Shown piece by piece: positions 5,205 to 56,495 of a DNA stretch of 64,000 nucleotides. The notes below the pieces were generated by a model. It had not been told where the DNA came from, made no database searches, and worked only from the letters and a program-made list of their open reading frames with translations. The stretch is from an uncultured Alphaproteobacteria bacterium. Lineage in GTDB: Bacteria > Pseudomonadota > Alphaproteobacteria > Rs-D84. The stretch is taken from contig CARVLU010000005.1 in assembly GCA_949082785.1 (NCBI GenBank), forward strand, positions 2,767-66,766, read 5' to 3'. The number at the start of each line of letters is the position of its first letter. Position 1 is the stretch's first letter. The translations under genes and the position numbers were made by a program.

Positions 5205-5221
5205 GTGTTACCCCCTGTGGT

Positions 5222-6339: not shown

Positions 6340-6527
6340 CTGGATTGCCGCGCCATACCGGCGCCCCGCAACGCCAAAGGGGACGCAGTGCCTGGAAATT
6401 AAATACCCCTGTCATTGCGAGTGTAACGAAGCAATCCAGTCAAATCATGAACTATTCCTTATTATTCCTGGATTGCCGCGGTCGTCCGTCTTCGCTGCGC
6501 TACGTCGCGACTCACTTGCAATGACAA
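6340..6527. repeat. R1(degenerate)-S1-R2-S2-R1 palindromic element group
   Basis: ctggattgccgcgccataccggcgccccgcaacgccaa ... tgtcattgcgagtgtaacgaagcaatccag ... ctggattgccgcggtcgtccgtcttcgctgcgctacgtcgcgactcacttgcaatgacaa. Confidence 0.9.
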
Positions 6528-9258: not shown

Positions 9259-9345
9259 ATTCTCTCGTCCCATTAATTTTACCATAAAAATGTCGGGGTG
9301 GAAAGACAAAAGTTCAAACAAAAAACCCGCCATGCGGCGGGTCAT

Positions 9346-21675: not shown

Positions 21676-22962
21676 TTATTTTTTGCGGATGATTTTCCAC
21701 CATTTCTGGGCGGTGGCGGACGACTTGGCCCACAGACCCGCGATATCTTTGCCGACCTGTCCGCCGAAACTGTCGTTGATGCTGCCGCCTATATCTTTGG
21801 CGAATTGTCCCGCCTTGGTCGCCAGATAGGCAACCAACACCCCAACCAACAGTGTCACAAAAAATCCGTCGTTTTCCAGACCCGGCACCGCCGCCGCCAA
21901 ATTGGAATCAATCACCCCCGACAGCAATGCCGCGCACAGCGCCACCACCGCCGCCAACGACACAAAGAAAATGGCCGCGTTGATAAATCGCTGAATCTGT
22001 TTATCCAGACTTTCCGCATTAAACAGGGATAAAAAACCGTTAAAGATGTCGCCAGCAATCCCCTTATACGTGGTTTTGCCAATCGTTTCCGCAATCGCGG
22101 TAAAGGGCAACAACAACACCGCCAGGAACAAATCCGCAATCACCCCCAGCGCCATCAGCGCGAATTTCCAAATGTTATAGATAAACAACACGACAAACGT
22201 AATGCCGACCGCAAACGTGAATGCGCTGTGCCCAATCCCGGCCAGCATCCATTTCCACCCGGCCGCCACCGCGGTATAGAAAAATCCCGACAGCCGCGTC
22301 GGCACACACAGCAAATCGGCCGCACTGCCCGCATCCATCAGCATGTTTGTCGGCGCGTTGGTCGCGACATAATTATGTATCGCGGCGCATGTATCGGGCA
22401 ACGCGGCGCCCGCCGCCCCCGACACCGCATTTAAAATCAAATCCGACAGATGTGTCCCGACACTGACAACCGGTCCCATAATCCACATAAACAACTGGGC
22501 GGGGCCCTGTTCCAGAATTAAAATCCAGATGGAAATCAACACACCCTTTTTCAATATATCCGACCACAGCTTTTGAACATTTTGGCCGTCGCGCATCATC
22601 TGGTACGCTTCGAACATGACCCAGAACGCGTACGCCACAATCAAAAATATCACCACAAACCGCACCAGTGAATTTTCCAAAACATCCCCAATCAGCGACA
22701 TCGCCCCCATAAAGGCCAGGCCGACCTTGGCTTCGACCGGAACATAGTTTTTGACCAAAACGTTTTGCTGGAAACTATCCTGGAACTGGGTCATGTCGCG
22801 CGTAATGTCGGTCGTGAACAATTCCAAATTATGCGCCGTGGTCCATGCGCCAAAATCCCCCACATCCCCGGCGGGCAAATTGGCGGCTGCGCCATGCGCC
22901 GCGCCACCCATCATGATGCACAGGCACAGCACCGATAAAAATTTCCGTATCCATGCGCGCAT
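21676..22962 (-). CDS. Polytopic membrane protein M1 (paralog family M1-M5; possibly TrbL/VirB6-like)
   Basis: 428 aa. Signal peptide, at least 6 hydrophobic spans, loop Cys pair (PDTCAAIH...LLCVPT), LLLPFTAIAE helix, C-terminus ...WWKIIRKK. The start overlaps the M2 stop (TAATG). Confidence 0.8.
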   Translation of the reverse strand: MRAWIRKFLSVLCLCIMMGGAAHGAAANLPAGDVGDFGAWTTAHNLELFTTDITRDMTQFQDSFQQNVLVKNYVPVEAKVGLAFMGAMSLIGDVLENSLVRFVVIFLIVAYAFWVMFEAYQMMRDGQNVQKLWSDILKKGVLISIWILILEQGPAQLFMWIMGPVVSVGTHLSDLILNAVSGAAGAALPDTCAAIHNYVATNAPTNMLMDAGSAADLLCVPTRLSGFFYTAVAAGWKWMLAGIGHSAFTFAVGITFVVLFIYNIWKFALMALGVIADLFLAVLLLPFTAIAETIGKTTYKGIAGDIFNGFLSLFNAESLDKQIQRFINAAIFFVSLAAVVALCAALLSGVIDSNLAAAVPGLENDGFFVTLLVGVLVAYLATKAGQFAKDIGGSINDSFGGQVGKDIAGLWAKSSATAQKWWKIIRKK

Positions 22963-24395
22963 TATTTTTTACCCCCCGCGGCGTTGGCGATTTTTTCAAA
23001 CAACATTTTCGGCGCATCCCACATACGCTGCCCCAGTTGCTTCATCCAACCGCCGAAATCAAATTTTTCCGCCCCGTCTTTGCCCAGCAATCCGTCGATT
23101 TTGGGATTAATGACATAGTAATACAGGAAAAACAGCCCGAACATCACCATCAAAAATTCCCATCCGTTGCCCATGAAATCAAATGCGCCCGGATACCGGC
23201 GTTCGACGGCTGCTCGGCTCGCGGTGAAACAATTCCGGAATTTATCCGCATCCATCTGGCCGTCGGTCAATCCCACCTGTTCGCACGTTTTGAAAACGTT
23301 AATCACCGACAGCGTCTGCGCATCCGGGTTTTCGGCGCGCGCCCCCATCAGCGGCGGCATAACCGCACTGTACCCGTCAACCGGCCCGGGGAACGTTGCA
23401 TCCGCCGCATAAGATATCGTGGCGTATAAAATCAAAACCTTTAACGTGATGGCGACAATACGCACCGCCGATTTGACCAGCATGTTTATCGCGCCGCGCA
23501 CAACACCGTCGGCGACGGCCCACACGCCTTCGAATGCGGCGGCCGCCAGAAACAGCGGCAAGAATATAATGATAAACACCAGTTTGAATACAACCGACAA
23601 CACCTGGAAAAACAAATCAAACCCGATAATCAGGAACAATATCACCAACGCCAATCCCGCCATCCATGTGAACGCGCCGCCCCCCATCCCCAGCCATGCG
23701 TAATTCATCATGGAAAATCCGCCGGACGCGCCCGCCAGCATCACCGAATTCAAATTCCCCATCACGCACATAAAAGGTTTCAGCACCGGGTTCAACACAT
23801 CGTCGGTTGTAATCGGCGCGCCGCAATGGGCACTGTCGTTGACGCCGGACGCGGCCATCGCCAATTCTGCCCCCACCAGCATCACCGGCGTCACCGTGAT
23901 ATTGGTCACCGTGCGCAATGCGGTCGTCCCGCCCATCCCCAGCGCCCCCAGCATCACGCCCACAATCATAATACGGGCGCCGGTGCGCCAAACCCGGTCA
24001 AACCAGGGTTGAAATTCCAGCTTTTTTTCCTTGTCATCCAACGTGGTTGTTTTGGACGCCGCGTCATACAGATATTTGGCCGTATGGATAAACAGAAAAA
24101 TCCCAAACCCAATCGCCATCACAATCCACAGATGGTCCACCATCACCGTCCAGAACTTTTCCGCGGACAAACCGATGGCGGCAAACAATTGCTGAATATA
24201 TCCGCACAGAAAGCATCCGTTGGCGTCACCAATATCGCCGCCGCCCGCCCCGATGGCGTTTAAAAATCCGGACACGCTGGTGTACGTCAAACTGGCCCCA
24301 CTGATGGATGACGACAGATACCATATCCCCACCCCCAGCGCAATGGCGCCCATAATCACACGCACGGCAATCATAATCAGTTTTGCTTTCAGCAT
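22962..24395 (-). CDS. Polytopic membrane protein M2 (paralog family M1-M5)
   Basis: 477 aa. Contains NGCFLCGYIQQLF, loop Cys pair (SAHCGAP...PFMCVMG) and IIFLPLFLAAAAFEG. C-terminus ...AAGGKK. The start abuts the M3 stop (TAAATG). Confidence 0.8.
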   Translation of the reverse strand: MLKAKLIMIAVRVIMGAIALGVGIWYLSSSISGASLTYTSVSGFLNAIGAGGGDIGDANGCFLCGYIQQLFAAIGLSAEKFWTVMVDHLWIVMAIGFGIFLFIHTAKYLYDAASKTTTLDDKEKKLEFQPWFDRVWRTGARIMIVGVMLGALGMGGTTALRTVTNITVTPVMLVGAELAMAASGVNDSAHCGAPITTDDVLNPVLKPFMCVMGNLNSVMLAGASGGFSMMNYAWLGMGGGAFTWMAGLALVILFLIIGFDLFFQVLSVVFKLVFIIIFLPLFLAAAAFEGVWAVADGVVRGAINMLVKSAVRIVAITLKVLILYATISYAADATFPGPVDGYSAVMPPLMGARAENPDAQTLSVINVFKTCEQVGLTDGQMDADKFRNCFTASRAAVERRYPGAFDFMGNGWEFLMVMFGLFFLYYYVINPKIDGLLGKDGAEKFDFGGWMKQLGQRMWDAPKMLFEKIANAAGGKK

Positions 24396-25598
24396 TTATT
24401 TCTTGTCCGTTTTGCCCGCGGCCGCCCCGTCGCCACCGTTGATAATGGTCTGGCCCACCTTTTTGGCGGTATCGACCACAACCTTGGTCAATTTTTCGGC
24501 ATCGGTCGCCAATTGTTCGCTTAACTGGTTTTCGGTGCCGACATCGAACGTATCCAGCACCATCTTGGTCACCTGGCCGCCAAGTCCCGTGATAAAATTC
24601 ACAACATAGACCAACACCACACACCCCATCAGCGTCAGTGCCGCCAGATTTTCATCCGACAAATCGGCCGCAAACACATCCCCATTTGTAATCAGGTGCA
24701 TTAATTGGGCGCCGTCCCCACCACTGGCGGTAAAAAATTTGGCAATAATGACCATCACAACCGTGTACGTCAGCACCCCAGACGCCAGCGCAACAATTGA
24801 TTTAATCACCCGTTTAAACTGGCCGACACCAACCGTTTTCCCCAGATTTTTCATCCACGACGGCGCGTCCCCCCCACGGAACACAAACATCACCAGTGAC
24901 AACGGAAAGAAAAACGCAAAGAACGTCATCGCCACAATAATATCCGCGAAATAGAAACAGAACCGCACGAACAACCGGAAAAAGCCATAAACCAGATACA
25001 GCCCCATAAAAAATATGATGATGTGTTTCAGCAATGCCCCCACCCCCAGCATGGCGCGCCATGTGAACGCACTGTCCATGACGGCGATGCCCAGTTTGAT
25101 ATAGGCCTGGAACTGGGTAATGGTTGTTTTCATCAGCATGATGATGGCATCGCGCAACTGGGGGCGATAAAATCCGGTATCCGACATCGGCATCGGCTGG
25201 TATGTGACGCGTTCTTCGATTGTGGCGGCGTCCATTTGCACAACGCTTTGCGTATATGTCAGGGCGATTTGCGCCACCGGTTCGAACGTCAGTGTTGTCA
25301 CAAACCGCGGCAACATCACGCCCATCCCCAGAAACGTTAACGCAAACAGTGAACTGATTATCGCGGGTTGCACAGATTTCTTGTACCAGGGGTCGGGGAC
25401 ATTATCCTTGATATTCTTCCACACGGCGTTCAAGACATAGAATGCAAACAGCACACAGAACAAAATCATGCAAAAGAACGCGAATTGTCCATATACCGCG
25501 CCGGCCGCCATCGACACCACCTGGAACAGGCGGTCAAACACCGGGCAGCCCCAACACTGCACCGCATTGTTTATCAAAGGATTCACAATCCCATTCAT
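24396..25598 (-). CDS. Polytopic membrane protein M3 (paralog family M1-M5)
   Basis: 400 aa. Contains VQCWGCPVFDRLF, LTFEPVAQIAL and FFFPLSLVMFVF. C-terminus ...GKTDKK. ATGA overlap with the M4 stop. Confidence 0.8.
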   Translation of the reverse strand: MNGIVNPLINNAVQCWGCPVFDRLFQVVSMAAGAVYGQFAFFCMILFCVLFAFYVLNAVWKNIKDNVPDPWYKKSVQPAIISSLFALTFLGMGVMLPRFVTTLTFEPVAQIALTYTQSVVQMDAATIEERVTYQPMPMSDTGFYRPQLRDAIIMLMKTTITQFQAYIKLGIAVMDSAFTWRAMLGVGALLKHIIIFFMGLYLVYGFFRLFVRFCFYFADIIVAMTFFAFFFPLSLVMFVFRGGDAPSWMKNLGKTVGVGQFKRVIKSIVALASGVLTYTVVMVIIAKFFTASGGDGAQLMHLITNGDVFAADLSDENLAALTLMGCVVLVYVVNFITGLGGQVTKMVLDTFDVGTENQLSEQLATDAEKLTKVVVDTAKKVGQTIINGGDGAAAGKTDKK

Positions 25599-26902
25599 TT
25601 CTTTTTAATCCACCCGGCGGCCCGGCCGATTTTTTTGCCCCAGTCGTTTGCGCCGCGCCACACGGACTTGGAATCACGGGTCACCTGGTTATACAGGCCA
25701 TCCATCCCGGACGCGTATTTCTTTAACTGGGCGCGTGTGCGTTCAAAAATTTGAATCATCAGATAAAAAGTCAGTATCGCCGACAGCCACAAAATCGAAT
25801 GCTGGCCAAATCCCATGGACGAATTGGCAATCTGGGGCACATTGGACATGGCGGCGCCACCGGCCGCGACATTGAACACCGACGTATTCCATTGGAACAG
25901 TGCGCGAATAATCGCGATATTGATGCACAGAATAAACGCGCACGCAATCATGGTGATGACCAATTGTTGCAATGCCTTTATAATACCGGAAAACACGGGC
26001 CAGATGTCGAACCATTTGCTGGCATCTTTGGGTTTTACCACCCAGACCAAGACCTGGAACGGGTACAAAATCAACGCCATACCGAAATTAAAGATGCCCT
26101 GGATAATCAGCAACGCCATAAATAAATTGCACCCGACAAAGGTCGATATCAGCAAGATGCCCGTGATTAAATTCAGAAAATCTTCGCCCCCATGCGGTAT
26201 CAGCGATAATAACCCGCGCAGCCCCCGGTTCACGAAATCAAATCCGCGCTTAATCACCTGATTATTTGCATGGGACAAATCCGACACCGGCTGGACCAGG
26301 AATGCGCAGCTTTCCGCGCTGATCCACCCCTGGACAACAACGTCGGGCGGGCATTCGATGCGCGGCGCCGCACTGCCCGGGACCGACACGGCATCACTGA
26401 TTTGTTCGGTATATATCGCCCCCAGTTGCAGGAACGGGTTCACCACCCATTCGGTGACATAGACCGGCTTAATCTGCAACAAAACCGTTGCGGCGATAAT
26501 GGCACGCAATGCGGGTTTGAACATATTTTCGGCAATGGTGGTGCCACTGGCCTTGCCATCCCACATTTCGCCGCCGCCCGAAAACCCGAAAAATGCCAAC
26601 CAATCCTTTGGGAAAAACATCTTGACCAGATACAGCCCCATGGTCAATCCCAAAAATCCCCAGATTAAAACATAGATAATCCCGCCGCCGCGCCCGACAA
26701 AGAAATCATACGCCCCCGTCGCCACCGCCATCAGCGCATCCAGCACCAGCGGCACAAACGGCGCCAGGTTCAGCGCGTCCACAATCCCACCCATCGCATG
26801 GGCCGGACCACACCACAGCGCCACCCCCGCCGCGACACAGGTCGCGCGGCCAATATAACGACAAAGCCGCGATACAAACAGACTCATTCCCCCAAATTTC
26901 AC
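25595..26902 (-). CDS. Polytopic membrane protein M4 (paralog family M1-M5)
   Basis: 435 aa. GTG start at 26902 or ATG at 26887. Signal-like N-terminus ...WCGPAHA. Contains VVNPFLQLGAI and loop Cys pair (RIECPP...AESCAF). C-terminus ...AAGWIKKK. Confidence 0.8.
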   Translation of the reverse strand: MKFGGMSLFVSRLCRYIGRATCVAAGVALWCGPAHAMGGIVDALNLAPFVPLVLDALMAVATGAYDFFVGRGGGIIYVLIWGFLGLTMGLYLVKMFFPKDWLAFFGFSGGGEMWDGKASGTTIAENMFKPALRAIIAATVLLQIKPVYVTEWVVNPFLQLGAIYTEQISDAVSVPGSAAPRIECPPDVVVQGWISAESCAFLVQPVSDLSHANNQVIKRGFDFVNRGLRGLLSLIPHGGEDFLNLITGILLISTFVGCNLFMALLIIQGIFNFGMALILYPFQVLVWVVKPKDASKWFDIWPVFSGIIKALQQLVITMIACAFILCINIAIIRALFQWNTSVFNVAAGGAAMSNVPQIANSSMGFGQHSILWLSAILTFYLMIQIFERTRAQLKKYASGMDGLYNQVTRDSKSVWRGANDWGKKIGRAAGWIKKK

Positions 26903-26952
26903 TTAATTGATTTCAATTATATCACATTTGGGACAAAATATGATATAGTTAA

Positions 26953-28248
26953 ATGGCAATGTGGCGCTTTAAAAAATTTTGGATTGTATTTTTATCCTTT
27001 CTGCCGTTTGGTGCGGGGGCGGTGGCGCCGTTTGTCGTGGGTGGTATTGCGGGTCTGGGGGTGATTGCGGGATTTTCCATTTATCGCACCGCCGCACCAG
27101 TCAACATGGCCGACGCGATGAATTTCTTTTCCACATGTTGGACGTGCCAGATGTTTTCCGACATTATGGCGACAATGTCGAATTTACTGCCGCGGGCGTA
27201 TCACGCCATCGGCACCGTGATAATTCCGTTTGCGGCGGTGTTGACCGCGATTTGGTTTGCCTGGCAATTGGTGTCGGGATATATGAATGCGCGCGTCGAT
27301 GACCCCTGGACCATCAGCAGTAATTTCGGCAAACACCTGATAAAGCTGACGTTTGTCATATCTTTGCTGGCGTTCCCGTTGCCGCGCCTGATAACAACGG
27401 TCGCCATTGAACCCATTTTTAATATCGGATTATCGCTGAACCGGATTGTGGCGGGCGACGACAAATTTGCCGAATGCGTTGTTGCAACCGCCATCGCCGA
27501 CCCGGTATCAATCGACAGTGAATCTGCCGCACGCGGCGCGTTTTCACCACGTCTGCGTCATAATTTGGCGTGCGAATTGGCCAACGTTCATCAAATGACG
27601 GGTCTGGGGATGACGGTGGGCTGGACAATGCTGAACATGGCGTTCAACGAAAAATACATGCACAAGATTATGTGGGACGTGCCGATTTTCCCAAATATAC
27701 CGGTGTTCTTTGCGGGGTTGCTGATTTTGGTGCTGTTCTTTTTTGCATTGCTGCCGGTGCCGCTGTATTTCTTGGACGTCTTTATCACATTGTCGATGGA
27801 TTTAATCATGTTGCCGCTGTTTCTGCTGGGCTGGCTGTTCAAGGGATGGTCGATTATCCCCGGCGGCGGCGGCAAATCGATTCAGGCGATTATTAACGAC
27901 GTCGTCAAATCGACGGTCGGGATTGCGATGGTGGGCGTCTTTATCACGTTTACGGTGATGTTCCTGAATTCTGTTTTTGGCAATTGGGATGGTGCATCCG
28001 CATTGGCTGCGGCGATGGCGTCGGGCGATTCGACAATTTTGATGGACGGCCTGATGATGCGCAACGACAGTTTGATTACAATTGTGCTGATGGGGCTGTT
28101 TATTGCGATGTTTATGTCAATGATTCCGGCCCTGGTCCAGACTTTGTTTAACATTGAAATATCCCAGACAACGTATGAAAAAACGAAAAAGAACCTGGAT
28201 ATCATGTGGCAAAACATCAAAAAATGGTACGCCGCGATAAAAAAATAA
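26953..28248 (+). CDS. Polytopic membrane protein M5 (paralog family M1-M5), divergent from M4
   Basis: 431 aa. Contains STCWTCQMFSDIM, VAIEPIFNIGL, loop Cys pair (FAECVV...LACELA) and IMLPLFLLGWLFKGW. C-terminus ...WYAAIKK. Only 50 bp separates it from the M4 start. Confidence 0.8.
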   Translation: MAMWRFKKFWIVFLSFLPFGAGAVAPFVVGGIAGLGVIAGFSIYRTAAPVNMADAMNFFSTCWTCQMFSDIMATMSNLLPRAYHAIGTVIIPFAAVLTAIWFAWQLVSGYMNARVDDPWTISSNFGKHLIKLTFVISLLAFPLPRLITTVAIEPIFNIGLSLNRIVAGDDKFAECVVATAIADPVSIDSESAARGAFSPRLRHNLACELANVHQMTGLGMTVGWTMLNMAFNEKYMHKIMWDVPIFPNIPVFFAGLLILVLFFFALLPVPLYFLDVFITLSMDLIMLPLFLLGWLFKGWSIIPGGGGKSIQAIINDVVKSTVGIAMVGVFITFTVMFLNSVFGNWDGASALAAAMASGDSTILMDGLMMRNDSLITIVLMGLFIAMFMSMIPALVQTLFNIEISQTTYEKTKKNLDIMWQNIKKWYAAIKK

Positions 28249-29163: not shown

Positions 29164-29871
29164 ATGGATTTGTTGATCAAGGGTTCGTCGGAATTAAACA
29201 AAATGTTTGCGGCATTGCAACGGACTGCGTCCGGTTTGCGCCGCGATTTTGGCGAAGTGGAAAATTTACAACAATCCCTGCGCGGTGCCCGCGACTTCGT
29301 GGCCAAGGCCGCCAACCGCATCGAAGAAAGTATTTTAAACGACCTGTTGCTGGTGCGTCCGGCGGCGGGTTTGTTGACGCCGAACGTATCGCGTGACGGT
29401 GATGGCCGTGACGAATTTGTGCTGGCACTGTCGGGGGCGCCGAATTTTGTCCGCGCCAATCCGCACTTTGCAATTTCATTGGCACTGCGTTCGAACGACG
29501 AAACAAAAATCGCATTGATTTATTCACCGATTGACGAACGTCTGTATTACGCGGAACGCGGTGCGGGCGCATACGCATTTTCTGCATTTCATTCGGCAAA
29601 AATCCGTGTATCGAATTTGTCGAACCCGGCCGATTTGACGGTTGCATTTAATACCGCATCCCCGCGCCCGGGTATCATGGGCAACATCCGCATGACGGGA
29701 TGCCCGGCATTGGATTTGGCATGGGTTGCGGCGGGCCGTTTGGATGCATATGTATCTGACCCGTTGGATTATGCCGAAATCGCCGCCGGCGAACTGATTC
29801 TGGCCGAAGCGGGGGGTACCCTGGAAATGGGCGCCGATTTAATCGCCACCAATGGCCGGGTTGAATTATAA
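29164..29871 (+). CDS. Inositol monophosphatase/SuhB-fold protein with degenerate active site
   Basis: 235 aa. Aligns by eye to E. coli SuhB (PHFAISLAL, GCPALDLAWVAAGRLDAY, AAGELILAEAGG). However, WVIDPLDGTTNF is replaced by FVLALSGAPNF and ITEE by LTPN. Confidence 0.7.
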   Translation: MDLLIKGSSELNKMFAALQRTASGLRRDFGEVENLQQSLRGARDFVAKAANRIEESILNDLLLVRPAAGLLTPNVSRDGDGRDEFVLALSGAPNFVRANPHFAISLALRSNDETKIALIYSPIDERLYYAERGAGAYAFSAFHSAKIRVSNLSNPADLTVAFNTASPRPGIMGNIRMTGCPALDLAWVAAGRLDAYVSDPLDYAEIAAGELILAEAGGTLEMGADLIATNGRVEL

Positions 29872-29900
29872 AAATCCCCCCGTATGGGGGATTTTTTTTA
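29871..29900. terminator. Bidirectional terminator AAAAATCCCCC-CGTAT-GGGGGATTTTTTTT
   Basis: Starts within the suhB-like stop codon. Confidence 0.85.
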
Positions 29901-29906
29901 TCCCCG

Positions 29907-29945
29907 TTGTCATTGCGAGCAAGCGTAGCGCGCGCGGCAATCCAG
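29907..29945. repeat. Single R element
   Basis: ttgtcattgcgagcaagcgtagcgcgcgcggcaatccag, between two terminators. Confidence 0.9.
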
Positions 29946-29947
29946 TA

Positions 29948-29970
29948 ATAAAATCCCCCGTTCGGGGGAT
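29948..29970 (-). terminator. Terminator of cassette HTH gene copy 2
   Basis: ATCCCCC-GAAC-GGGGGAT + TTTT on the minus strand. Confidence 0.75.
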
Positions 29971-29974
29971 GGCA

Positions 29975-30202
29975 TTACAAATTATCGCGGCTGCGTTTTA
30001 TCACCAACAGTGCAAACGCACCGTGAAAGAAACGACGCAGCGTCCCTTCGGCGAACAGGTCGTGGCCACGTTCACATTTCTGATAATCTTTCTTGTTCAT
30101 TTTCAATAATTTTGCCGCGTCGGCAACACTGATTTTCAAATGTTGGCGCGCATGGCGCATAATATTGCCGTAATACTGGGCATCGATTAATAATTTTGCC
30201 AT
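29975..30202 (-). CDS. 75-aa XRE-family HTH protein, cassette copy 2
   Basis: MAKLLIDAQYYGNIMRHARQHLKISVADAAKLLKMNKKDYQKCERGHDLFAEGTL... AAGGAG lies 9 nt upstream. Confidence 0.88.
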   Translation of the reverse strand: MAKLLIDAQYYGNIMRHARQHLKISVADAAKLLKMNKKDYQKCERGHDLFAEGTLRRFFHGAFALLVIKRSRDNL

Positions 30203-30394
30203 AGTTTAAACTCCTTTTAAGTTATTAAAACACCGCCCGTAAAAGCACAGGCGGTTGGAGGTTCAAAGCTATTCACAGAAATAGTGTGGTTTATTCAATA
30301 TATTCACCACCCTCCAACCAATGGTTGGAATGTTTTTTGTCTTCGCAGACATCTGTGATATGGGCTTTGATACCCTACACCGGTTACCCAATGC
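30203..30394 (-). ncRNA. Candidate structured leader RNA, cassette copy 2
   Basis: Same block order as copy 1. H3 is GUGGU/ACCAC. Extra hairpin UGUCU-GCGA-AGACA. Confidence 0.6.
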
Positions 30395-30400
30395 GTGTGA

Positions 30401-30429
30401 ATTATATCGCATCACGCGCGAATGTTCAA
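30401..30429 (-). promoter_or_regulatory. Cassette promoter copy 2 (TTGAAC-17-TATAAT)
   Basis: Minus strand reads AATAAATTTAAATCCCTTGAACattcgcgcgtgatgcgaTATAAT. Confidence 0.7.
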
Positions 30430-30463
30430 GGGATTTAAATTTATTGGTGTGTGGGTTAATTTA

Positions 30464-30947
30464 CTGGATTGCCACGCGGCGGCGTACCGCCTTGCTCGCA
30501 ATGACAAGGGGGATGCAGTTCCTGGAAATTAGACACCGTTGTCATTGCGAGTGCAGTGACGCAATCCAGTGAATAGTGGTCTGTTCCTTATTATCTGGAT
30601 TGCCGCGCGCGCTACGCTTGCTCGCAATGACAAAGGAGATGCAGTGCCAAGCAATTCAACACCGTTGTCATTGCGAGTGTAACGAAGCAATCCAGTGAAT
30701 AGTGGTCTGTTCCTTATTATCTGGATTGCCACGCGCGCTACGCTTGCTCGCAATGACAAAGGGGATGCAGTTCCTGGAAATCAAACACTGTTGTCATTGC
30801 GAGTGTAACGAAGCAATCCAGTGAATGGTGGTCTGTTCCTTATTATCTGGATTGCCACGCGCGCTACGCTTACTCGCAATGACAAAGGAGATACAGTTCC
30901 TGGAAATTAAACACCGTTGTCATTGCGAGTGTAACGAAGCAATCCAG
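30464..30947. repeat. Array 2: 3.8 units (131/126/126 bp) of R1-S1-R2-S2
   Basis: CTGGATTGCC at 30464, 30595, 30721 and 30847. S1 is in the opposite orientation to array 1 (gggggatgcagttcctggaaattagacaccg), and an alternative S1 occurs (aggagatgcagtgccaagcaattcaacaccg). Confidence 0.95.
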
Positions 30948-30986
30948 TCGGTTATGCCGCGCGGATGCGCGTACCACCCACCCCCA

Positions 30987-31015
30987 TAAAAAATCCCCCA
31001 TTCGGGGGGATTTTA
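30987..31015. terminator. Bidirectional terminator AAAAAATCCCCC-ATTC-GGGGGGATTTT; overlaps the stop of the 31013 gene
   Basis: The hairpin and its 41-nt upstream flank (TCGGTTATGCCGCGCGGATGCGCGTACCACCCACCCCCAT) are repeated at 38472-38538. Confidence 0.8.
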
Positions 31016-31660
31016 TTTATTCGGGATGATTTTGATTTCCACGCGACGGTTCTGCTGGCGCCCGGCGGCGGTCGCATTCGACGCAATCGGATTCGACGGT
31101 CCCATGCCCATGATTTCAAACCGGGTGGATTTTACCCCCTGGCCCTGTAAATAGGCGGCCACGGCCGTCGCGCGTTGCTTTGACAATGTCATGTTATACG
31201 CGTCCGACCCCGTATTATCGGTAAAGCCCATAACCATCACGGTCGAATTGCTGTATTTATTCAAAACCTTGGCCACGGAATTCAGTGTCGCATAAAATCC
31301 AGCATTGATGTCTGCGGAATCTGTTTTAAATGTGATGTTGCCCGGCATAATTAAACGAATGCTGTCATCGGTGCGTTCAACGCTGACCCCGGTTGATGCC
31401 AGTTCCGCGCGCAGTTCGGCTTCTTGGACATCCAGATAGTATCCAACGCCGCCGCCAACCGCCGCCCCGGCCAGGCCACCCACAATGGCACCGGTGCCGC
31501 TTTTCTTGGCAACCAATGCGCCCGTCGCCGCACCGGTGGCCGCACCGATGGCGGTGCCCCAGACAGCCTTGGACGTTTGGGATTGGCCGGTATAAGGATT
31601 GGTTGTGGTGCACGCCGCCAACAATCCGGTCAGCGCACATAATGTGACAAATTTTTTCAT
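31013..31660 (-). CDS. OmpA-family lipoprotein with glycine-zipper segment
   Basis: Start moved to ATG 31660. Lipobox LLAACTT. Contains GTAIGAATGAATGALVA...GGLAGAAVGGGVGYY. OmpA_C motifs GFTDNTGSDAYNMTLSKQRATAVAAYL and NRRVEIKI. Confidence 0.88.
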   Translation of the reverse strand: MKKFVTLCALTGLLAACTTTNPYTGQSQTSKAVWGTAIGAATGAATGALVAKKSGTGAIVGGLAGAAVGGGVGYYLDVQEAELRAELASTGVSVERTDDSIRLIMPGNITFKTDSADINAGFYATLNSVAKVLNKYSNSTVMVMGFTDNTGSDAYNMTLSKQRATAVAAYLQGQGVKSTRFEIMGMGPSNPIASNATAAGRQQNRRVEIKIIPNK

Positions 31661-31730
31661 TTGTAATTCCCCCTTTTTCACAGGGGTATTTTACCCCATT
31701 TTTCCCAAAAACACAAAAAATAATAATGGG

Positions 31731-31933: not shown

Positions 31934-32010
31934 TGGTGGGTGTTGAGGGACTCAAACCCCCGACCCTCTCGGTGTAAACGAGATGCTCTAATCAACTGAG
32001 CTAAACACCC
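31934..32010 (-). tRNA. tRNA-Val(UAC), CCA encoded
   Basis: Reverse complement is GGGTGTTTAGCTCAGTTGATTAGAGCATCTCGTTTACACCGAGAGGGTCGGGGGTTTGAGTCCCTCAACACCCACCA. Cloverleaf arms pair. The anticodon loop is TTTACAC. Confidence 0.92.
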
Positions 32011-34772: not shown

Positions 34773-36866
34773 TTATTTCGATATCTGGACAAATTGGCGG
34801 GCGACCTTTTTAATGCCGCGTTCGCGGAACGCAATGGTCAAGATGTCGCCATCAACTTCGATAATAACGCCGCGGCCCATTTCGGTATGCAAAACCAGTT
34901 TCCCGACCAGATTTTCCGACCGGGGTGCGCTGCGCCGTGGGGCGTTGCCGTACGATTGGGTAATACCGCGCGTGTTCAGTGTCCGCATCGCGCCCATGCC
35001 CACACCCTGGAACGTTAAAAATGCGGGGTCCATTTCGGATATAAACCGGCTGGGGGCGTTGTATTTGCGTTCGCCAAAGACCATGCGTGACATGGCATTG
35101 CTGATGACCACGCGCACCCGACCGCGCGTCACCGCAACATACGCCAGACGGCGTTCTTCTTCCAATGAACCATCGTTAATCGCCATTTCGTTCGGGAAAA
35201 TGCCATCTTCCCATCCGGGCAGAAATACCGTGTTGAATTCCAATCCCTTGGCCGCGTGGATGGTCATAATGCTGACGGCGTTGGTGTCGCTGGGGCTTTC
35301 CGTGTCGTTGTCATCGGTCATCATCAACGCCGCATGTTCCAAAAATTCGGCCATGGTGTCATATTTGGAAATAACGTTGGTTATTAATTCCCGGATATTT
35401 TCAATGCGTTCGGGGGCGTCCACATCACGGGAATCGCGCCACATTTTCATGTACCCCGATTGTTCCAGCAATGTCTGGGCCGCGTCCGCCGGGCGCATCG
35501 TGTCCCATGAAAAATCAAATGCCGCCAGAAATTCATCAGCCGCCACGCGCTGTTTGCCCGACAATGGCGCCGCGCGCAGCCCCGCCATCAAATTGGGGCC
35601 AAATCCGCGAATCTTGGCAATGGCGGACGGACCGAACCCCCGGCGCGGCTTTGCAATAACGCGCAGAAAAGATAAATCATCAAACGGATGGGCCAGCAAT
35701 CGCAGATACGCAATCGCGTCGCGGATTTCCATCCGGTCATAAAACTTGGTCGCACCGATTAAGCGGTACGGAATCCCGCGGGATGTGAATTCTTCTTCGA
35801 ACAGACGCGACAAACTGCCCGCGCGAATCAAAATGGCAAAATCGTTGTATTTGTTGTCGGCATTTCGGGTAATGGTGTCGGCAATCGCGCGCGCTTCGTC
35901 CCAGTCGGTCGGCACCGTCAAGACATAGACCGCTTCGCCTGCGTCCATGCCGGGGGCGGGGTGTAAATCCTTGCCCAGTCTGCCAGAATTGTGCCGTATC
36001 AGTGAATTGGCCGCGCCCAAAATGTTGGCCGTGGACCGGTAATTGGTTTCCAGACGAATAATCTGGGCGTTTTCGTACGTCTGGTCAAAATTCAGGATGT
36101 GTTTGATTTCCGCCCCGCGCCATGAATAAATCGATTGGTCATCATCGCCCACACAGCAAATGTTTTGCGCACCGCCCGCCGGGGTCAGCATCGTTAAAAA
36201 CTGCATCTGGGCACTGTTGGTATCCTGGAATTCGTCCACCAAGATATAATGAAACTGGCGCTGATAACGTTCCAGAACATCCGGCGCATTTTGAAACAAT
36301 TCCAAAACACGCAAAATAATATCCCCAAAATCGACGGCGTTTAACCGGGCCAGTTCCGCATTATACGCATCATAAATTTCGCCCATGCGCCCCCCCAAAT
36401 GGGCGGCGGCGTCCAATCCCTTGTCCTTTATCATGGAAATCTTTTCGACCCATGTGGCGGGGCTGTATTCCTTTGGGTCCAGGGCCATTTCGGCAAATAT
36501 GGATTTCAATACGGCCTTTTGATCATCTTCGCCAAAGACCAAAAAATCACGCCGCAGTCCCACCCGGTCACAATTGTATCGCAAAATCCGCAGACACACC
36601 GAATGGAACGTCCCGCACCAAATATCGGCGGCCGACCACGCGCCGCCCCCCATCTGCCCCAGACGGTTTTTCATTTCGTTGGCAGCCTTGTTCGTGAACG
36701 TCAGGGCCAAAATCTGCCACGGCGCGGCCAGCCCATTATTTAAAATATACGCGATGCGCGTGGTCAGCACGCGCGTTTTGCCCGTTCCCGCCCCAGACAA
36801 CACCAACAGCGGCCCATCGGTCGTTTCCACCGCCAGCCGCTGTTCGTTATTAAGATTTTCTAGCAT
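34773..36866 (-). CDS. uvrD: UvrD/PcrA/Rep-family ATP-dependent DNA helicase
   Basis: Start moved to ATG 36866. SF1 motifs GAGTGKT, DEFQDTN, GDDDQSIYSWRGA, TIHAAKGLEF and VAVTRGR. Confidence 0.9.
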   Translation of the reverse strand: MLENLNNEQRLAVETTDGPLLVLSGAGTGKTRVLTTRIAYILNNGLAAPWQILALTFTNKAANEMKNRLGQMGGGAWSAADIWCGTFHSVCLRILRYNCDRVGLRRDFLVFGEDDQKAVLKSIFAEMALDPKEYSPATWVEKISMIKDKGLDAAAHLGGRMGEIYDAYNAELARLNAVDFGDIILRVLELFQNAPDVLERYQRQFHYILVDEFQDTNSAQMQFLTMLTPAGGAQNICCVGDDDQSIYSWRGAEIKHILNFDQTYENAQIIRLETNYRSTANILGAANSLIRHNSGRLGKDLHPAPGMDAGEAVYVLTVPTDWDEARAIADTITRNADNKYNDFAILIRAGSLSRLFEEEFTSRGIPYRLIGATKFYDRMEIRDAIAYLRLLAHPFDDLSFLRVIAKPRRGFGPSAIAKIRGFGPNLMAGLRAAPLSGKQRVAADEFLAAFDFSWDTMRPADAAQTLLEQSGYMKMWRDSRDVDAPERIENIRELITNVISKYDTMAEFLEHAALMMTDDNDTESPSDTNAVSIMTIHAAKGLEFNTVFLPGWEDGIFPNEMAINDGSLEEERRLAYVAVTRGRVRVVISNAMSRMVFGERKYNAPSRFISEMDPAFLTFQGVGMGAMRTLNTRGITQSYGNAPRRSAPRSENLVGKLVLHTEMGRGVIIEVDGDILTIAFRERGIKKVARQFVQISK

Positions 36867-36938
36867 TAAATTCACGAAGTCATTATAATGCCAAAAACCA
36901 AACATAGCAAAAATTTATTTAGCCAACGGAACCGCACC

Positions 36939-37616
36939 ATGAATCGTATCATCTGCTTTGACATTGAAACAACCGGATTGGAATACAGCCGCGGTGACCG
37001 GTGCATTGAAATCGGCGCGGTCGAAGTGATTGACGGCAAAATCACGGATCGCACATTTCATGAATACATTAACCCAGACGGCAAAATCATCCCGCCCGAT
37101 TCGTACATGGTCCATAAAATTTCCAACGCATTTTTGGAAGACAAACCGAAATTCGCGGCCATTGCAAAACCGTTCCTGGATTTTATCGGCGACAGCCCCA
37201 TTGTCGCACACAACGGATTTGATTTTGACTTTCCGTTTATTAATTTTGAATTGGCCCAGTTGCGTCTGCCGCAAATTCCCCGCACCCAGCAACTGGATTC
37301 ACTGGTGATTGCGCGCAACCGTGTCTTTGGTCCCAAAACATATACGTTGGACGCGTTGGCCAAATGGTATGGCATCCCACTGACCGCCCGCGCAGAAGCG
37401 CACGGGGCCTTAATCGACGCGGAAATCCTGGCCAAGGTGTACCTGGAACTGGACAACACGGCGCCCGCCCCGGATATCAGTGAAATCATTGCCCAGCAAC
37501 ACGCGGCCCTGGAAAAGCAACAGCGTTTCGGTGCGAATTTCCCCCGCCGGTCGTTCCCGGTTCCCGACGCGGATTTGGCCGCACACCGGGCATTTATGGA
37601 AAAAATCACGGCATAA
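36939..37616 (+). CDS. dnaQ: DNA polymerase III epsilon subunit (3'-5' exonuclease)
   Basis: Start moved to ATG 36939. Exo motifs CFDIETTGL, VAHNGFDFDFPF and HGALIDAEILAKVY. Confidence 0.9.
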   Translation: MNRIICFDIETTGLEYSRGDRCIEIGAVEVIDGKITDRTFHEYINPDGKIIPPDSYMVHKISNAFLEDKPKFAAIAKPFLDFIGDSPIVAHNGFDFDFPFINFELAQLRLPQIPRTQQLDSLVIARNRVFGPKTYTLDALAKWYGIPLTARAEAHGALIDAEILAKVYLELDNTAPAPDISEIIAQQHAALEKQQRFGANFPRRSFPVPDADLAAHRAFMEKITA

Positions 37617-37636
37617 AAATCCCCCGTATGGGGGAC
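37616..37636. terminator. Shared convergent terminator (dnaQ / HTH copy 3)
   Basis: AAAAATCCCCC-GTAT-GGGGGA between the two stop codons. Confidence 0.75.
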
Positions 37637-37640
37637 AATG

Positions 37641-37868
37641 TTATAAATTGTCGCGGCTGCGTTTTATCACCAGCAGTGCAAATGCCCCGTGGAAAAACCG
37701 GCGCAATATGCCAATGTCAAACAGCGCCTGGCCCCGTTCACATTTCTGATAATCTTTCTTGTTCATTTTCAATAATTTTGCCGCGTCGGCCACACTGATT
37801 TTCAAATGTTCGCGCGCATGGCGCATGATATTGCCGTAATAATTGGCATCGATTAATAATTTTGCCAT
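37641..37868 (-). CDS. 75-aa XRE-family HTH protein, cassette copy 3
   Basis: MAKLLIDANYYGNIMRHAREHLKISVADAAKLLKMNKKDYQKCERGQALFDIGIL... Confidence 0.88.
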   Translation of the reverse strand: MAKLLIDANYYGNIMRHAREHLKISVADAAKLLKMNKKDYQKCERGQALFDIGILRRFFHGAFALLVIKRSRDNL

Positions 37869-38051
37869 AGTTTAAACTCCTTATGTTTTTTAAGCAAAAA
37901 AACACCGCCCGTAAAAGCACAGGCGGTTGGAGGTTAGTAACTACAAACAAGTATAGTGTCGCTTATTTAAGTATATCGCGACCCTCCAACCAATTGTCGG
38001 AGATTTTTTCTTACTTTTGGGTTACTACACCCTACACCGGTTACCCAATGC
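37869..38051 (-). ncRNA. Candidate structured leader RNA, cassette copy 3
   Basis: H3 is GUCGC/GCGAC. H4 is ACUAUA-N6-UGUAGU. It lacks the GNRA hairpin of copies 1 and 2. Confidence 0.6.
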
Positions 38052-38057
38052 GTGTGA

Positions 38058-38086
38058 ATTATATCGCATCCCACGCGAATGTTCAA
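38058..38086 (-). promoter_or_regulatory. Cassette promoter copy 3 (TTGAAC-17-TATAAT)
   Basis: Minus strand reads AATAAATTTAAATTCCTTGAACattcgcgtgggatgcgaTATAAT. Confidence 0.7.
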
Positions 38087-38120
38087 GGAATTTAAATTTA
38101 TTGGTGTGGGGGTTGATTTA

Positions 38121-38471
38121 CTGGATTGCCACGCGCGCTACGCTTGCTCGCAATGACAAAGGAGATGCAGTGCCAAGCAATTCAACACCATTGTCATTGC
38201 GAGTGCAACGAAGCAATCCAGTGAATGGTGGTCTGTTCCTTATTATCCGGATTGCCACGCCATACCGGCGCCCCGCAATGACAAAGGAGATACAGTGCCA
38301 AGCAATTCAACACCATTGTCATTGCGAGTGTAGTGACGCAATCCAGTGAATGGTGGTCTGTTCCTTATTATCTGGATTGCCGCGCCACTGACGTGGTTCG
38401 CAATGACAAAGGAGATACAGTGCCAAGCAATTCAACACCGTTGTCATTGCGAGTGCAGTGACGCAATCCAG
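38121..38471. repeat. Array 3: 2.8 units (126/125 bp) of R1-S1-R2-S2
   Basis: CTGGATTGCC-type starts at 38121, 38247 (ccggattgcc) and 38372. All S1 are of the gtgccaagcaattcaac type. Confidence 0.95.
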
Positions 38472-38511
38472 TCGGTTATGCCGCGCGGATGCGCGTACCA
38501 CCCACCCCCAT

Positions 38512-38538
38512 AAAAAATCCCCCGTGCGGGGGGATTTT
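38512..38538. terminator. Bidirectional terminator AAAAAATCCCCC-GTGC-GGGGGGATTTT; overlaps the stop of the 38537 gene
   Basis: Same sequence family and upstream flank as 30987-31015. Confidence 0.8.
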
Positions 38539-40813: not shown

Positions 40814-41002
40814 TATGGATAAATTATATCACAACTTGTCGGCATGGGAAAGATGAAATTACGCGTGGCGCAAGAAATTACGTTTAAAAAACAGCCCCCA
40901 CATTCGCGACCAATCACACCGCCGGGCCGCGCATTCGTTTTAATTGTCCCCCCACGGATTGACGGTGGGGGTGATGCGTGAATAATGACCAATTCCTATT
41001 AC

Positions 41003-41103
41003 CTGGATTGCCGCGGTCGCGTTGCTCCCTCGCAATGACAAGGATGTTTAATTTCCAGGAACTTTATCTCCTTTGTCATTGCAGGTGTAACGAAGCAATC
41101 CAG
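41003..41103. repeat. R1-S1-R2 doublet (REPIN-like)
   Basis: ctggattgccgcggtcgcgttgctccctcgcaatgacaa / ggatgtttaatttccaggaactttatctcc / tttgtcattgcaggtgtaacgaagcaatccag. Confidence 0.9.
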
Positions 41104-41104
41104 T

Positions 41105-41131
41105 AAAAAATCCCCCGGGTGGGGGATTTTT
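41105..41131. terminator. Terminator AAAAAATCCCCC-GGGT-GGGGGATTTTT
   Basis: Ends 2 nt before the stop codon of the 41133 gene. Confidence 0.8.
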
Positions 41132-41132
41132 A

Positions 41133-44216: not shown

Positions 44217-44289
44217 CCGACTCACTCCGTTATTAATTACTTTATTATAACACAAGCCAGCCGGATGACCAAGGAAAATATATAGATTT

Positions 44290-47616: not shown

Positions 47617-47622
47617 TGTGTA

Positions 47623-56373: not shown

Positions 56374-56399
56374 AAATCCCCCCATGCGGGGGATTTTTT
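56372..56399. terminator. Terminator AAAAATCCCCCC-ATGC-GGGGGATTTTTT
   Basis: Begins within the stop codon of the Yip1-like gene. Confidence 0.85.
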
Positions 56400-56417
56400 G
56401 TTTTTATATTATATCCT

Positions 56418-56461: not shown

Positions 56462-56495
56462 TAAATCAACCCCCACACCAATAAATTTAAATCCC

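Follow-up and report, generated by a model that had tools for sequence, protein, structure and literature searches.

Copies of a structured RNA with its own promoter and terminator, placed before mini-XRE and secreted-protein genes in uncultured Alphaproteobacteria

The DNA analyzed here is a stretch of 64,000 nt (the window) from contig CARVLU010000005.1 of an uncultured Alphaproteobacteria bacterium (assembly GCA_949082785.1), and our subject is a cassette that occurs in it four times, at 3670–4711, 29901–31015 and 37617–38538 on the minus strand and at 56400–57168 on the plus strand (copies 1 to 4). A preliminary description of the window had proposed that the four loci share one architecture, and reading all four of them bears this out at those positions and on those strands. 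Each cassette is made up, in order, of one or more arrays of a palindromic repeat that we call the R element, the sequence CACACCAATAAATTTAAAT, a promoter TTGAAC-17-TATAAT that matches the consensus at 10 of 12 positions, a structured stretch, the Shine-Dalgarno (SD) sequence AAGGAG, an open reading frame (ORF) of 75 codons and a hairpin terminator; further R elements lie 3' of this terminator in copies 1, 2 and 4. The cassette is a composite of three separable layers, namely a core RNA unit, a cargo ORF and a decoration of repeats. The core is a self-contained transcription unit consisting of an A/T-rich tract, the promoter, an RNA of about 170 nt with a terminator, and an SD and ORF about 24 nt further on. 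The cargo ORF of the window always encodes a 75-aa protein with a predicted XRE fold (the mini-XRE protein), while in related genomes the cargo consists mostly of Cys-rich signal-peptide proteins. Copy 2 contains the following parts:

29874–29892, border hairpin, a bidirectional terminator common to the convergent inositol-monophosphatase-family gene at 29164–29871
29907–29945, one R element 3' of the ORF, in the orientation opposite to that of the promoter-adjacent R
29953–29970, minus strand, terminator hairpin ATCCCCC-GAAC-GGGGGAT 3' of the ORF
29975–30202, minus strand, gene for the 75-aa XRE-like mini-protein, with the SD AAGGAG at 30211–30216
30225–30397, minus strand, structured RNA, 164.7 bits with our covariance model (CM) R1
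30401–30429, minus strand, sigma-70-type promoter TTGAAC-17-TATAAT
30433–30453, minus strand, CACACC box and A/T-rich tract AATAAATTTAAAT, the left edge of the part that is conserved in all copies of the clade
30464–30947, minus strand, R array of eight TGTC-tagged hairpins resembling repetitive extragenic palindromes (REPs), in alternating orientation, period 126 bp, 3.8 copies
30948–30987, minus strand, distal block ATGGGGGTGGGTGGTACGCGCATCCGCGCGGCATAACCGA of 40 nt, identical in copy 3 (38472–38511) and followed in both copies by a hairpin
30993–31011, border hairpin (ATCCCCC-ATTC-GGGGGGAT), flanked on either side by A/T runs and doubling as the terminator of an OmpA-family gene (31013–31681)

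The CACACC box with its AATAAATTTAAAT tract may be an UP element or an operator, and related AATAAATTTGCAA tracts are present at loci L156, L012 and L013 (L numbers denote loci outside the window).

The stretch between promoter and gene had earlier been called a structured leader. Structured it is, but the intrinsic terminator at its end (30232–30255 in copy 2, a 10-bp stem and a T run) had gone unnoted. The leader of copy 2 folds with a minimum free energy (MFE) of −66.1 kcal/mol (z = −5.6), and none of 200 shuffled sequences folds equally well. The pattern GGTTGGRGG-N35-60-AACCTCCAACC occurs 4 times in the window where 0.00 occurrences are expected, and a scan of metagenome contigs with it gave at least 120 loci; viral contigs were scanned in the same way. 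The model R1 was built from loci recruited by this pattern, and its alignment holds 99 sequences. It matches more than 100 copies in full length; a single metagenome-assembled genome (MAG), of which about 100 kb was sampled, accounts for at least 25. The RNA is present in many copies per genome in uncultured Alphaproteobacteria, as the MAGs are labelled at NCBI, and the contigs come from gut, sediment and other metagenomes.

The structure is strongly supported by covariation. In the 99-sequence alignment 95.8% of the cells are paired and compensatory changes are found in 37 of the 45 pairs, a level that 0 of 500 shuffles reach and that compares with about 40% in slid controls; the RNA thus possesses the conserved structured domain by which a riboswitch or attenuator is recognized. 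The transcribed strand is fixed by G-U pairs. The RNA is about 170 nt long, is closed by an intrinsic terminator, and begins with a hairpin, P1, of the form CAUUGG-GNRA-CCGGUG. The long-range helix A:A' shows double changes at 5 of 7 pairs and is extended by AGG:CCU, and the segment after A pairs with the loop of hairpin H5 (B:B'), cognate partners forming 5.4 contiguous bp compared with 3.2 for non-cognate ones over 90 distinct loops. Hairpin H3, with a GNRA-type loop, is optional and is missing in copies 3 and 4, and hairpin H4b has a conserved loop GA(A)UAU..AAUAA (GAAUAUAUUGAAUAA in copy 2) and double changes at 5 of 5 pairs. Three segments are near-invariant: seg1 CUCCAACC, seg2 GGUUGGAGG(G) and seg3 AACCUCCAACC (CCUCCAACC in copy 2), the terminal ACC of seg3 being the base of the terminator stem. 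The terminator itself is present in essentially all copies, and its helix 9 is 97% paired. Two other features were considered and rejected: a local H2 hairpin (GGG...CCC), which is weakly supported, RNAalifold and the MFE folds preferring AGG:CCU with the long-range A:A', and a leader peptide or small ORF inside the RNA, whose reading frames vary between copies when checked by eye.

At its gathering thresholds Rfam 15 finds rRNA and tRNA only in the whole window and no family for this RNA in the window or in 8 RNA-bearing loci, and scans by E-value reached 30.6 bits at best. Literature word searches with the seg2/seg3 and R-element core sequences returned no relevant paper. At one locus (L017:2560–2713) we noted an additional, 5'-truncated copy of the RNA (52.6 bits) upstream of a full unit; it is preceded by a short tandem repeat of the type GTTAGTG(T/G) (L017:2540–2620), and similar GTGGTTAGTG repeats occur in L024.

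A sigma-70-type promoter lies 3–4 nt before the model start in 76 of 98 RNA copies, compared with 34 of 2000 random positions (1.7%). On the 3' side, 79 of 99 copies have an ORF with an SD in the same orientation, at a median gap of 24 nt, and 64 of these 79 gaps are no longer than 40 nt. So short a gap leaves no room for a separate promoter, and from this spacing the ORF would be expressible only through read-through of the terminator. The 79 downstream ORFs comprise 30 members of the mini-XRE family, 37 signal-peptide proteins (mostly Cys-rich) and 12 others, and some of the secreted proteins carry Flg_new (Listeria-Bacteroides) or Ephrin_rec_like repeats. The MAG loci around XRE-type units contain 8 further RNA units, several of them before genes for Cys-rich secreted proteins. 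In L021 (2935–3000) and L022 (2936–3000) a GC-rich hairpin element of about 65 nt (CCCCGCC...GGCGGGG) lies between the RNA terminator and the SD of the mini-XRE gene. A phage or plasmid origin was considered and rejected, as blastn gave no match among 50,697 records of phages and 72,556 of plasmids, yet a few IMG/VR contigs do carry the RNA: four contigs classified as viral (L148, L149, L151 and L152) have full-length units (88–112 bits) before secreted-protein or other genes.

All four 75-codon ORFs are intact, with AAGGAG 5' of each, and the most divergent pair differs at 13 of 75 residues (83% identity; mean column identity 90%). The preliminary description had given the figure of 13 residues and had concluded that the protein looks selected; a codon analysis of 17 paralogues agrees, the median ratio of nonsynonymous to synonymous substitution rates (dN/dS) being 0.12. 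Between the window copies dS is 0.35–1.2, so that the paralogues are old and do not stem from a recent burst of transposition. In copy 1 an in-frame upstream ATG at 4106 would lengthen the protein by MKI. The assignment of the protein as XRE/HTH_3-like (a helix-turn-helix, or HTH, protein) is weak at the level of sequence models and gains some support from the predicted fold. With Pfam, HTH_31 gives 20.5–22.7 bits (E ~1e-4) against a gathering cut-off of 27 and HTH_3 gives 12.6 against 23, and the matches of NCBIfam models are far below their cut-offs. The AlphaFold2 model (pLDDT confidence score 71) has four helices, and the top PDB matches found by Foldseek are XRE-type proteins (ClgR, C.BclI and HipB), at weak values of E ~0.02 and a template-modelling (TM) score of ~0.6. 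The profile searches that had been proposed for the protein leave it below the threshold of every curated family tested, and the RNA likewise reaches none.

A word-indexed protein search found 36 close relatives with E ≤ 0.001. The identity of the full-length ones is 72% or more, and those with a name all bear the label 'Alphaproteobacteria bacterium'. When 1.84 billion representative proteins were searched with a profile, there were 42 matches, nearly all of 70–86 aa, with the motif M..L(V/I)DA+YYG...R.AR...DAA..L....Y...E.G..(I/L)PE, in which the N-terminal extension L(V/I)DA+YYG is both conserved and unusual. Every XRE homologue that we examined has the RNA directly upstream, down to about 30% identity; the distant homologues, of ~30–40% identity (L017, L021–L025 and L153–L156), have the same RNA directly 5'. 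The RNA core is better conserved than the protein. As an operator for the XRE protein we considered the inverted repeat TCGC-N7-GCGA in the promoter spacer and set it aside, since it is confined to this clade and no motif is common to the distant XRE units. One 75-aa family member from a K2L95 MAG (P0013) is named 'CRISPR-associated endonuclease Cas1' in NCBI; this label is probably a mis-annotation from a spurious weak match to TIGR03639, such as is seen in the homologue P0047 (E 0.012).

The near-invariant segments of the RNA suggest how it might work. Seg2 can pair with either seg1 or seg3, and compensation supports both pairings: seg1:seg2 is compensated by a joint change in unit 2 of L103, seg2:seg3 is compensated in L013:3152 and L143:4030, and in L035:10057–10277 all three segments change jointly (CUCCUGA / GGUCAGGAGG / CCUCCUGACC). 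This joint covariation argues for a topology like that of an attenuator, with alternative 1:2 and 2:3 pairings and a terminator (3:4). Our preferred reading, to which we assign a probability of about 0.5, is that the RNA is a cis-acting transcription attenuator or riboswitch-like leader of the terminator type, with gain and loss between species. By default, the 1:2 pairing and the long-range closing helices would form, the terminator would form with them, and an abundant short RNA would result. A signal (a ligand, a protein or a kinetic effect) that favours 2:3 would cost the terminator the three base pairs beside the U tract, and transcription would then continue into the downstream gene, be it for an XRE or for a secreted protein. 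The regulatory output would be the mini-XRE proteins, probably as repressors or autoregulators acting on DNA. The REP-type R elements and hairpin terminators would supply insulation and recombination homology in this clade, and copies would turn over through recombination at flanking repeats rather than by a dedicated transposase.

Several results weigh against this reading. The terminator fold is the MFE fold in 80 of 91 copies, and the fold with seg2:seg3 is on average about 11 kcal/mol less stable; moreover, seg2:seg3 removes 3 of about 8 terminator pairs and a stem of 5–7 bp remains. The terminator state is the dominant one in the modelled folds, and control by read-through is accordingly hypothetical. 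Riboswitch expression platforms usually vary, whereas this terminator is universal. The pattern used for recruitment from metagenomes contained seg2 and seg3, and their invariance is partly due to this ascertainment, although copies recruited via the protein or the CM carry the same seg2/seg3 sequences. Finally, locus L103 has four tandem complete RNA units (157–1002, plus strand), each with its own −35/−10 and terminator, and an ORF is absent behind about 10 copies whose contigs extend far enough to show one; stand-alone or tandem units of this kind, without an ORF, are a better fit to a free-standing small RNA (sRNA). The tandem units of L103 are followed by an 84-aa ORF without a known family, and a fifth unit on the other strand (5133–5290) precedes a weak mini-XRE homologue.

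Among known systems, the cyclic di-GMP-I (c-di-GMP-I) leaders are multi-copy and lie before surface-protein genes, and the trp attenuator works with 1:2, 2:3 and 3:4 pairings. Our RNA resembles such terminator-type riboswitches and attenuators in its structured 5' domain, its long-range helices, the terminator and the ORF behind it, in its mutually exclusive covarying pairings, and in the presence of many copies before secreted or surface proteins and regulators. It differs from them in that no leader peptide is known for it, its terminator is universal and dominant, and there are stand-alone and tandem units with their own promoters. A bolder version, which we regard as unlikely, would make the RNA a new class of signal-responsive leader (a riboswitch or a protein-gated attenuator). 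With a dedicated mini-XRE family that occurs behind this RNA alone, it would form a genome-wide circuit by which uncultured, host-associated Alphaproteobacteria regulate their Cys-rich secreted and surface proteins. The mini-XRE protein might then act on the RNA itself, and the 3' domain would be anciently related to sRNA-Xcc1, an 'orphan' sRNA that would in turn become a cis-acting leader of genes for small DNA-binding proteins.

The resemblance to sRNA-Xcc1 (RF02221) comes from L103:699–773, which scores 30.6 bits against that family (threshold 53). The alignment covers the 3' domain, which has in both RNAs a closing helix of 9 bp (GGnnGGnGG/CCnCCnnCC), two hairpins and a U-rich linker of 7 nt; RF02221 has no match in a window copy or in 20 other loci. 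In the reverse direction, our 3'-domain model R2 matches two genuine RF02221 members from viral (IMG/VR) contigs (L225:3534–3621 and L228:10873–10957, 65 bits) at the exact place and strand with 22.1 and 16.5 bits, a result weaker than it looks because these loci were chosen by the closing helix, and the full-length model has no match at the genuine members. The copy in L225 lies directly upstream of a KilA-N gene and that in L228 directly upstream of a Bro-N gene. The literature describes sRNA-Xcc1 as an 88-nt sRNA, verified by Northern blot, that precedes symE and an ORF6N gene and has seven copies in Xylella, five being in tandem (PMC2996969; PMC12189769). It may therefore itself be a 5' leader of genes for small DNA-binding proteins. 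The two RNAs share the layout of the 3' domain, the place just 5' of small DNA-binding-type genes and the multi-copy, tandem habit. At twice the length of sRNA-Xcc1, the window-type RNA carries a further 5' domain (P1, A, B, H3 and seg1) and an obligatory terminator, and it is chromosomal, whereas sRNA-Xcc1 is borne by integrons, phages or plasmids. Homology between the 3' domain and sRNA-Xcc1 is possible and is not established.

The outer layer of the cassettes is formed by R elements and hairpins. A regular-expression census found 33 R elements in the window, 28 inside the four cassettes and 5 elsewhere; all 33 have the sequence TGTC-ATTGC...GCAAT-CCA(G) and are 31–61 nt long. R doublets alternate in orientation with conserved spacers of 31 and 25 nt, and Tandem Repeats Finder gives the arrays a period of 125–126 bp and 2.6–3.8 copies. 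A CRISPR-like array was considered and rejected because the 'spacers' between the R elements are conserved. Clustered repeat forms comparable to the R arrays are the dRS3/NIME arrays of Neisseria. Every cassette is bracketed by stereotyped hairpins of the form AAAAATCCCCC-N4-GGGGGATTTT (ATCCCCC-N4-GGGGGAT), which had likewise gone unnoted. They number 9 in the window against 0.005 expected, and all 9 are borders of cassettes or R clusters, the remaining gene ends of the window having none. A separate repeat family is one possibility for them, recombination sites for cassette turnover another. The remaining features of this layer and of copies 1, 3 and 4 are:

4121–4293, minus strand, copy 1 RNA (CM 165.3 bits), with its promoter at 4297–4325
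4352–4711 and 3677–3840, copy 1 R elements, the upstream array and the downstream elements, respectively
3870–4097, minus strand, copy 1 mini-XRE gene, with hairpins at 3848–3865 and 3646–3662
37897–38054, minus strand, copy 3 RNA without hairpin H3 (CM 144.1 bits)
38121–38471, copy 3 R array, followed by the 40-nt block at 38472–38511 and the border hairpin at 38517–38535
37641–37868, minus strand, copy 3 mini-XRE gene, whose terminator abuts a convergent DnaQ-like gene (36888–37616)
56528–56684, plus strand, copy 4 RNA without H3 (CM 127.7 bits), with a border hairpin (56376–56394) and a single R (56418–56461) upstream
56707–56934, plus strand, copy 4 mini-XRE gene, then three R elements (56964–57146) and a border hairpin (57176–57193)
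41003–41127, R doublet (41003–41103) and ATCCCCC hairpin (41110–41127), with no RNA or ORF
6340–6527, three clustered R elements, RNA and ORF being absent
3646–3662, 3848–3865, 29874–29892, 29953–29970, 30993–31011, 38517–38535, 41110–41127, 56376–56394 and 57176–57193, the nine ATCCCCC hairpins

The preliminary description had likened the layout to REPIN/RAYT systems (REP doublets forming hairpins and their REP-associated tyrosine transposases). Such a framing, in which the R elements would define the ends of the unit and the HTH gene would be its cargo, has to be given up, since R elements are separable from the RNA units and R clusters also stand alone. In an alignment of the 330 nt 5' of the 4 window copies and of the first 15 copies from a related MAG (JAIDWS01, see below), 5 of the 15 (L004, L005, L008, L010 and L014) had no upstream R and kept the promoter, the ~170-nt stretch, the terminator and the SD. 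Outside the window clade 60 of 71 RNA copies have no R nearby, although 25 of 61 loci carry R-like elements at some other place. As R is missing beside most distant units, the R elements are passengers or neighbours, and the XRE protein cannot generally be an R-binding factor. It had also been said that the cassette was not recognised as a described element class. For the core RNA this holds, in that it matches no Rfam 15 family; the R elements, on the other hand, fit a published group, the CGTC-tagged REP superfamily (Di Nocera et al. 2013; PMC3733652), whose definition calls for a CGTC (or TGTC/CCTC) tag at the end, a stem that opens with AT and a tail of 3 nt, CCA. This superfamily is mainly alphaproteobacterial, forms dimers and is reported without a dedicated transposase. 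Like its members, R has a TGTC tag, an AT-start stem (ATTGC...GCAAT), a CCA tail and inverted dimers with 25–31-nt spacers, is extragenic beside terminators and has no associated transposase. Published CGTC families have a stem of 8–9 bp and a loop of 4–5 nt, and clusters are rare (PMC3733652), whereas R has a basal stem of 5–6 bp, a variable interior of 10–40 nt and long tandem arrays. The REP units of REPIN/RAYT systems are defined by a GTAG-type tag at one end (PMC3733652). R elements resemble REPINs (Bertels & Rainey 2011, PMC3116915) in forming inverted doublets with a short spacer and a larger hairpin, over-represented in extragenic space; they differ in having no GTAG tag (they start with TGTC and end with CCAG) and no RAYT among 50 scanned window ORFs, and the RNA/XRE unit, being mostly R-free in other genomes, is not REPIN cargo.

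Copies were then mapped in relatives, as had been proposed. Among 185,579 species-representative genomes the mini-XRE gene is present in one MAG, JAIDWS01, which has 16 loci on many contigs and a diverged 17th copy; this count of at least 17 rules out a local segmental duplication. The window and JAIDWS01 are about 80–88% identical over the matched syntenic flanks, and copies 1 and 2 are at conserved positions in JAIDWS01 (L009 and L001). The proposed comparison of orthologous sites gave two reciprocal cases of presence and absence. The copy 3 cassette is missing in JAIDWS01, where the DnaQ-like gene and a 758-aa gene are parted by one hairpin terminator, and JAIDWS01 has a full module (the overlapping loci L015 and L016) at the place where the window (40813–41133) has the R doublet and hairpin of 41003–41127. 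No clean terminal inverted repeat or target-site duplication was seen between the filled and empty states of these two sites, flanking hairpin terminators being found instead. At the copy 1 site the JAIDWS01 mini-XRE gene has a dN of 0.24 and a dS of 1.5, compared with a dS of 0.28 between copy 2 and L001, which suggests a cassette replacement at the copy 1 site. Copy 4 is mosaic, its RNA being like that of copy 3 and its protein like that of copy 2, and together with the divergence of copy 1 from L009 this points to gene conversion or cassette swapping. Turnover presumably proceeds by recombination among the R arrays, the hairpins and the units themselves. A metagenome contig (L044, OFGQ01002876.1) that is 98.6% identical to window positions 57178–64000 joins sequence beyond the window end to the flank of copy 3 (36835–38292); this junction reflects either a rearrangement of the genome at the repeats or a chimeric assembly.

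Other explanations can be set against a cis-acting leader. The RNAs could be a family of trans-acting 'sibling' sRNAs, free-standing genes with a CCUCC seed like an anti-SD, the downstream genes getting only leak-through. An own promoter and terminator in nearly every copy, the tandem units of L103 and the copies without an ORF, the terminated form as the thermodynamic default, the invariant CCUCCAACC / GGUUGGAGG motifs and the weak reciprocal similarity of the 3' domain to sRNA-Xcc1 (PMC2996969; PMC12189769) all speak for it, as does an alphaproteobacterial precedent, the multi-copy CcsR/'cuckoo' sRNAs of Rhodobacter with their CCUCCUCCC motifs and their link to a small protein gene, that of the DUF1127 protein CcaF1 (PMC8034643, PMC4615179). 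These RNAs share with ours the C/U-rich anti-SD-like motifs and the linkage to a very small protein gene, co-transcribed there and presumably here; they differ in being simple hairpins that lie downstream of the protein gene, whose product is an RNA-binding DUF1127 and not XRE-fold, and Rfam gives no similarity between them and the window-type RNA. We nevertheless hold a sibling sRNA family to be rather unlikely, because in 64 of the 79 cases the ORF begins no more than 40 nt behind the RNA, has a good SD and leaves too little space for a promoter, a systematic cis layout that extends over unrelated gene families, because the CCUCC motif is base-paired in both modelled folds, and because an architecture of about 45 bp with joint seg1/seg2/seg3 covariation exceeds the needs of a seed-bearing sRNA. 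We consider it improbable that the XRE-fold protein binds its own leader RNA instead of or besides DNA, for instance to favour or prevent read-through or to make the RNA more stable, so that the two would be a dedicated ribonucleoprotein or feedback pair. The protein family is seen only directly behind the RNA in all homologues examined, the RNA is the better conserved of the two, the N-terminal L(V/I)DA+YYG extension is unusual, ribosome-contacting HTH proteins of XRE type are among the fold matches (rabbit 80S, 7o81; yeast Mbf1, 9f9s), and small RNA-binding partners of multi-copy sRNAs exist in Alphaproteobacteria (CcaF1, PMC8034643). Most RNA copies, however, precede other genes and have no adjacent XRE gene, and the best fold matches (with weak E-values) are classical DNA-binding repressors.

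A view close to that of the preliminary description would make the whole cassette a non-autonomous mobile element, with R elements or ATCCCCC hairpins as its ends, an enzyme encoded elsewhere and the mini-HTH protein as an accessory or recognition factor. It agrees with the reciprocal presence and absence between the window and JAIDWS01, with the two similar hairpin terminators that flank the filled site where the empty one has a single one, with the location of all 9 ATCCCCC hairpins at borders and of 28 of the 33 R elements in cassettes, with the 40-nt distal block common to copies 2 and 3, and with the cassette replacement suggested by the dS of 1.5 at the copy 1 site. The earlier statement that no transposase is present is also correct for what we scanned: 50 of the 54 non-overlapping window ORFs of at least 90 aa (the 4 left out are inside cassettes) contain no transposase, integrase or Y1/RAYT domain (Pfam, E ≤ 1e-5). 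This result itself argues against mobility, as do the lack of clean terminal inverted repeats or target-site duplications at the two polymorphic sites, the age of the paralogues (dS 0.35–1.2) with two of four positions conserved between species, the absence of R from most RNA units outside the clade, so that the XRE protein cannot generally act on R, the report of CGTC-type REPs without a dedicated transposase (PMC3733652) and the lack of matches in phage or plasmid collections; on balance a mobile element appears quite unlikely. Hardly credible, and already disfavoured, is an addiction or defence module (like type III toxin-antitoxin or acr/aca systems) in which the RNA would be the antitoxin or inhibitor and the HTH protein its regulator. 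The order of strong promoter, RNA, terminator and small HTH gene would suit it, and so would a weak NCBIfam similarity to antitoxin HTH domains (MqsA, HipB-like) and the fold matches to HipB and C-proteins. In the units that we read, a partner gene for a toxin or nuclease is missing and the RNA lacks internal repeats; the units lie on the chromosome in a housekeeping setting, without phage or plasmid matches, and the same RNA precedes secreted-protein genes; unlike type III systems, there is no tandem-repeat antitoxin RNA, and the downstream product is a 75-aa HTH-like protein and not an endoribonuclease. Small autoregulatory XRE proteins (C-proteins, antitoxin HTH proteins of HipB/MqsA type and ClgR) compare with mini-XRE in their size of about 75 aa, the predicted XRE fold of four to five helices and the place downstream of a strong promoter. 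Mini-XRE differs from them in having no partner toxin or restriction-modification genes, in scoring below curated thresholds, in its unique N-terminal LIDAxYYG and in its at least 17 paralogues per genome, each one examined being behind the structured RNA.

The neighbours of the cassettes are housekeeping genes (FabA-like, LpxD, a class-I tRNA synthetase, PNPase, UvrD, DnaQ-like, DnaX, OmpA, Der, S15, TruB, MutS and MreB). The window also contains a complete 16S rRNA gene (129–1630, minus strand, 1528 bits) and a tRNA-Val(TAC) gene (31934–32010, minus strand). Four large ORFs, at 2331–3641 (plus strand) and at 7336–9345, 38537–40813 and 41133–44255 (minus strand), encode proteins of 436–1040 aa with 3–4% cysteine, signal-peptide-like N termini and no Pfam family, and three of them adjoin cassette 1 or 3. 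They resemble the secreted proteins that follow the RNA in other genomes, and here they have no upstream RNA unit. Consecutive ORFs of 400–480 aa without a Pfam match are located at 46294–50176 (minus strand) and 21676–28248; the three at 46294–50176 have prepilin-like hydrophobic N termini (e.g. ...GGMLVELMLSVALAAVII...).

The R elements are a known kind of repeat and can be separated from the cassette, whose conserved core is a family of RNAs absent from Rfam 15. The surprising points are a private mini-XRE family that is paired only with this RNA and the second role of the RNA before secreted-protein genes; the function of the RNA and the target of the mini-XRE protein are what we infer from these patterns. 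The case illustrates that REP-type repeats and stereotyped terminators can give an ordinary regulatory unit the look of a mobile element, and it offers a hypothesis for the long-uncharacterised sRNA-Xcc1, namely that it is a cis leader of small DNA-binding-protein genes. If our reading is true, this is an abundant structured RNA family with strong covariation, a built-in promoter and terminator and a three-segment switch-like core. The RNA connects two gene sets that are otherwise unannotated, a private XRE-fold family of 70–86 aa and lineage-specific, mostly Cys-rich secreted proteins, and it would thereby provide a testable handle on the control of the cell surface in a poorly known group of Alphaproteobacteria.

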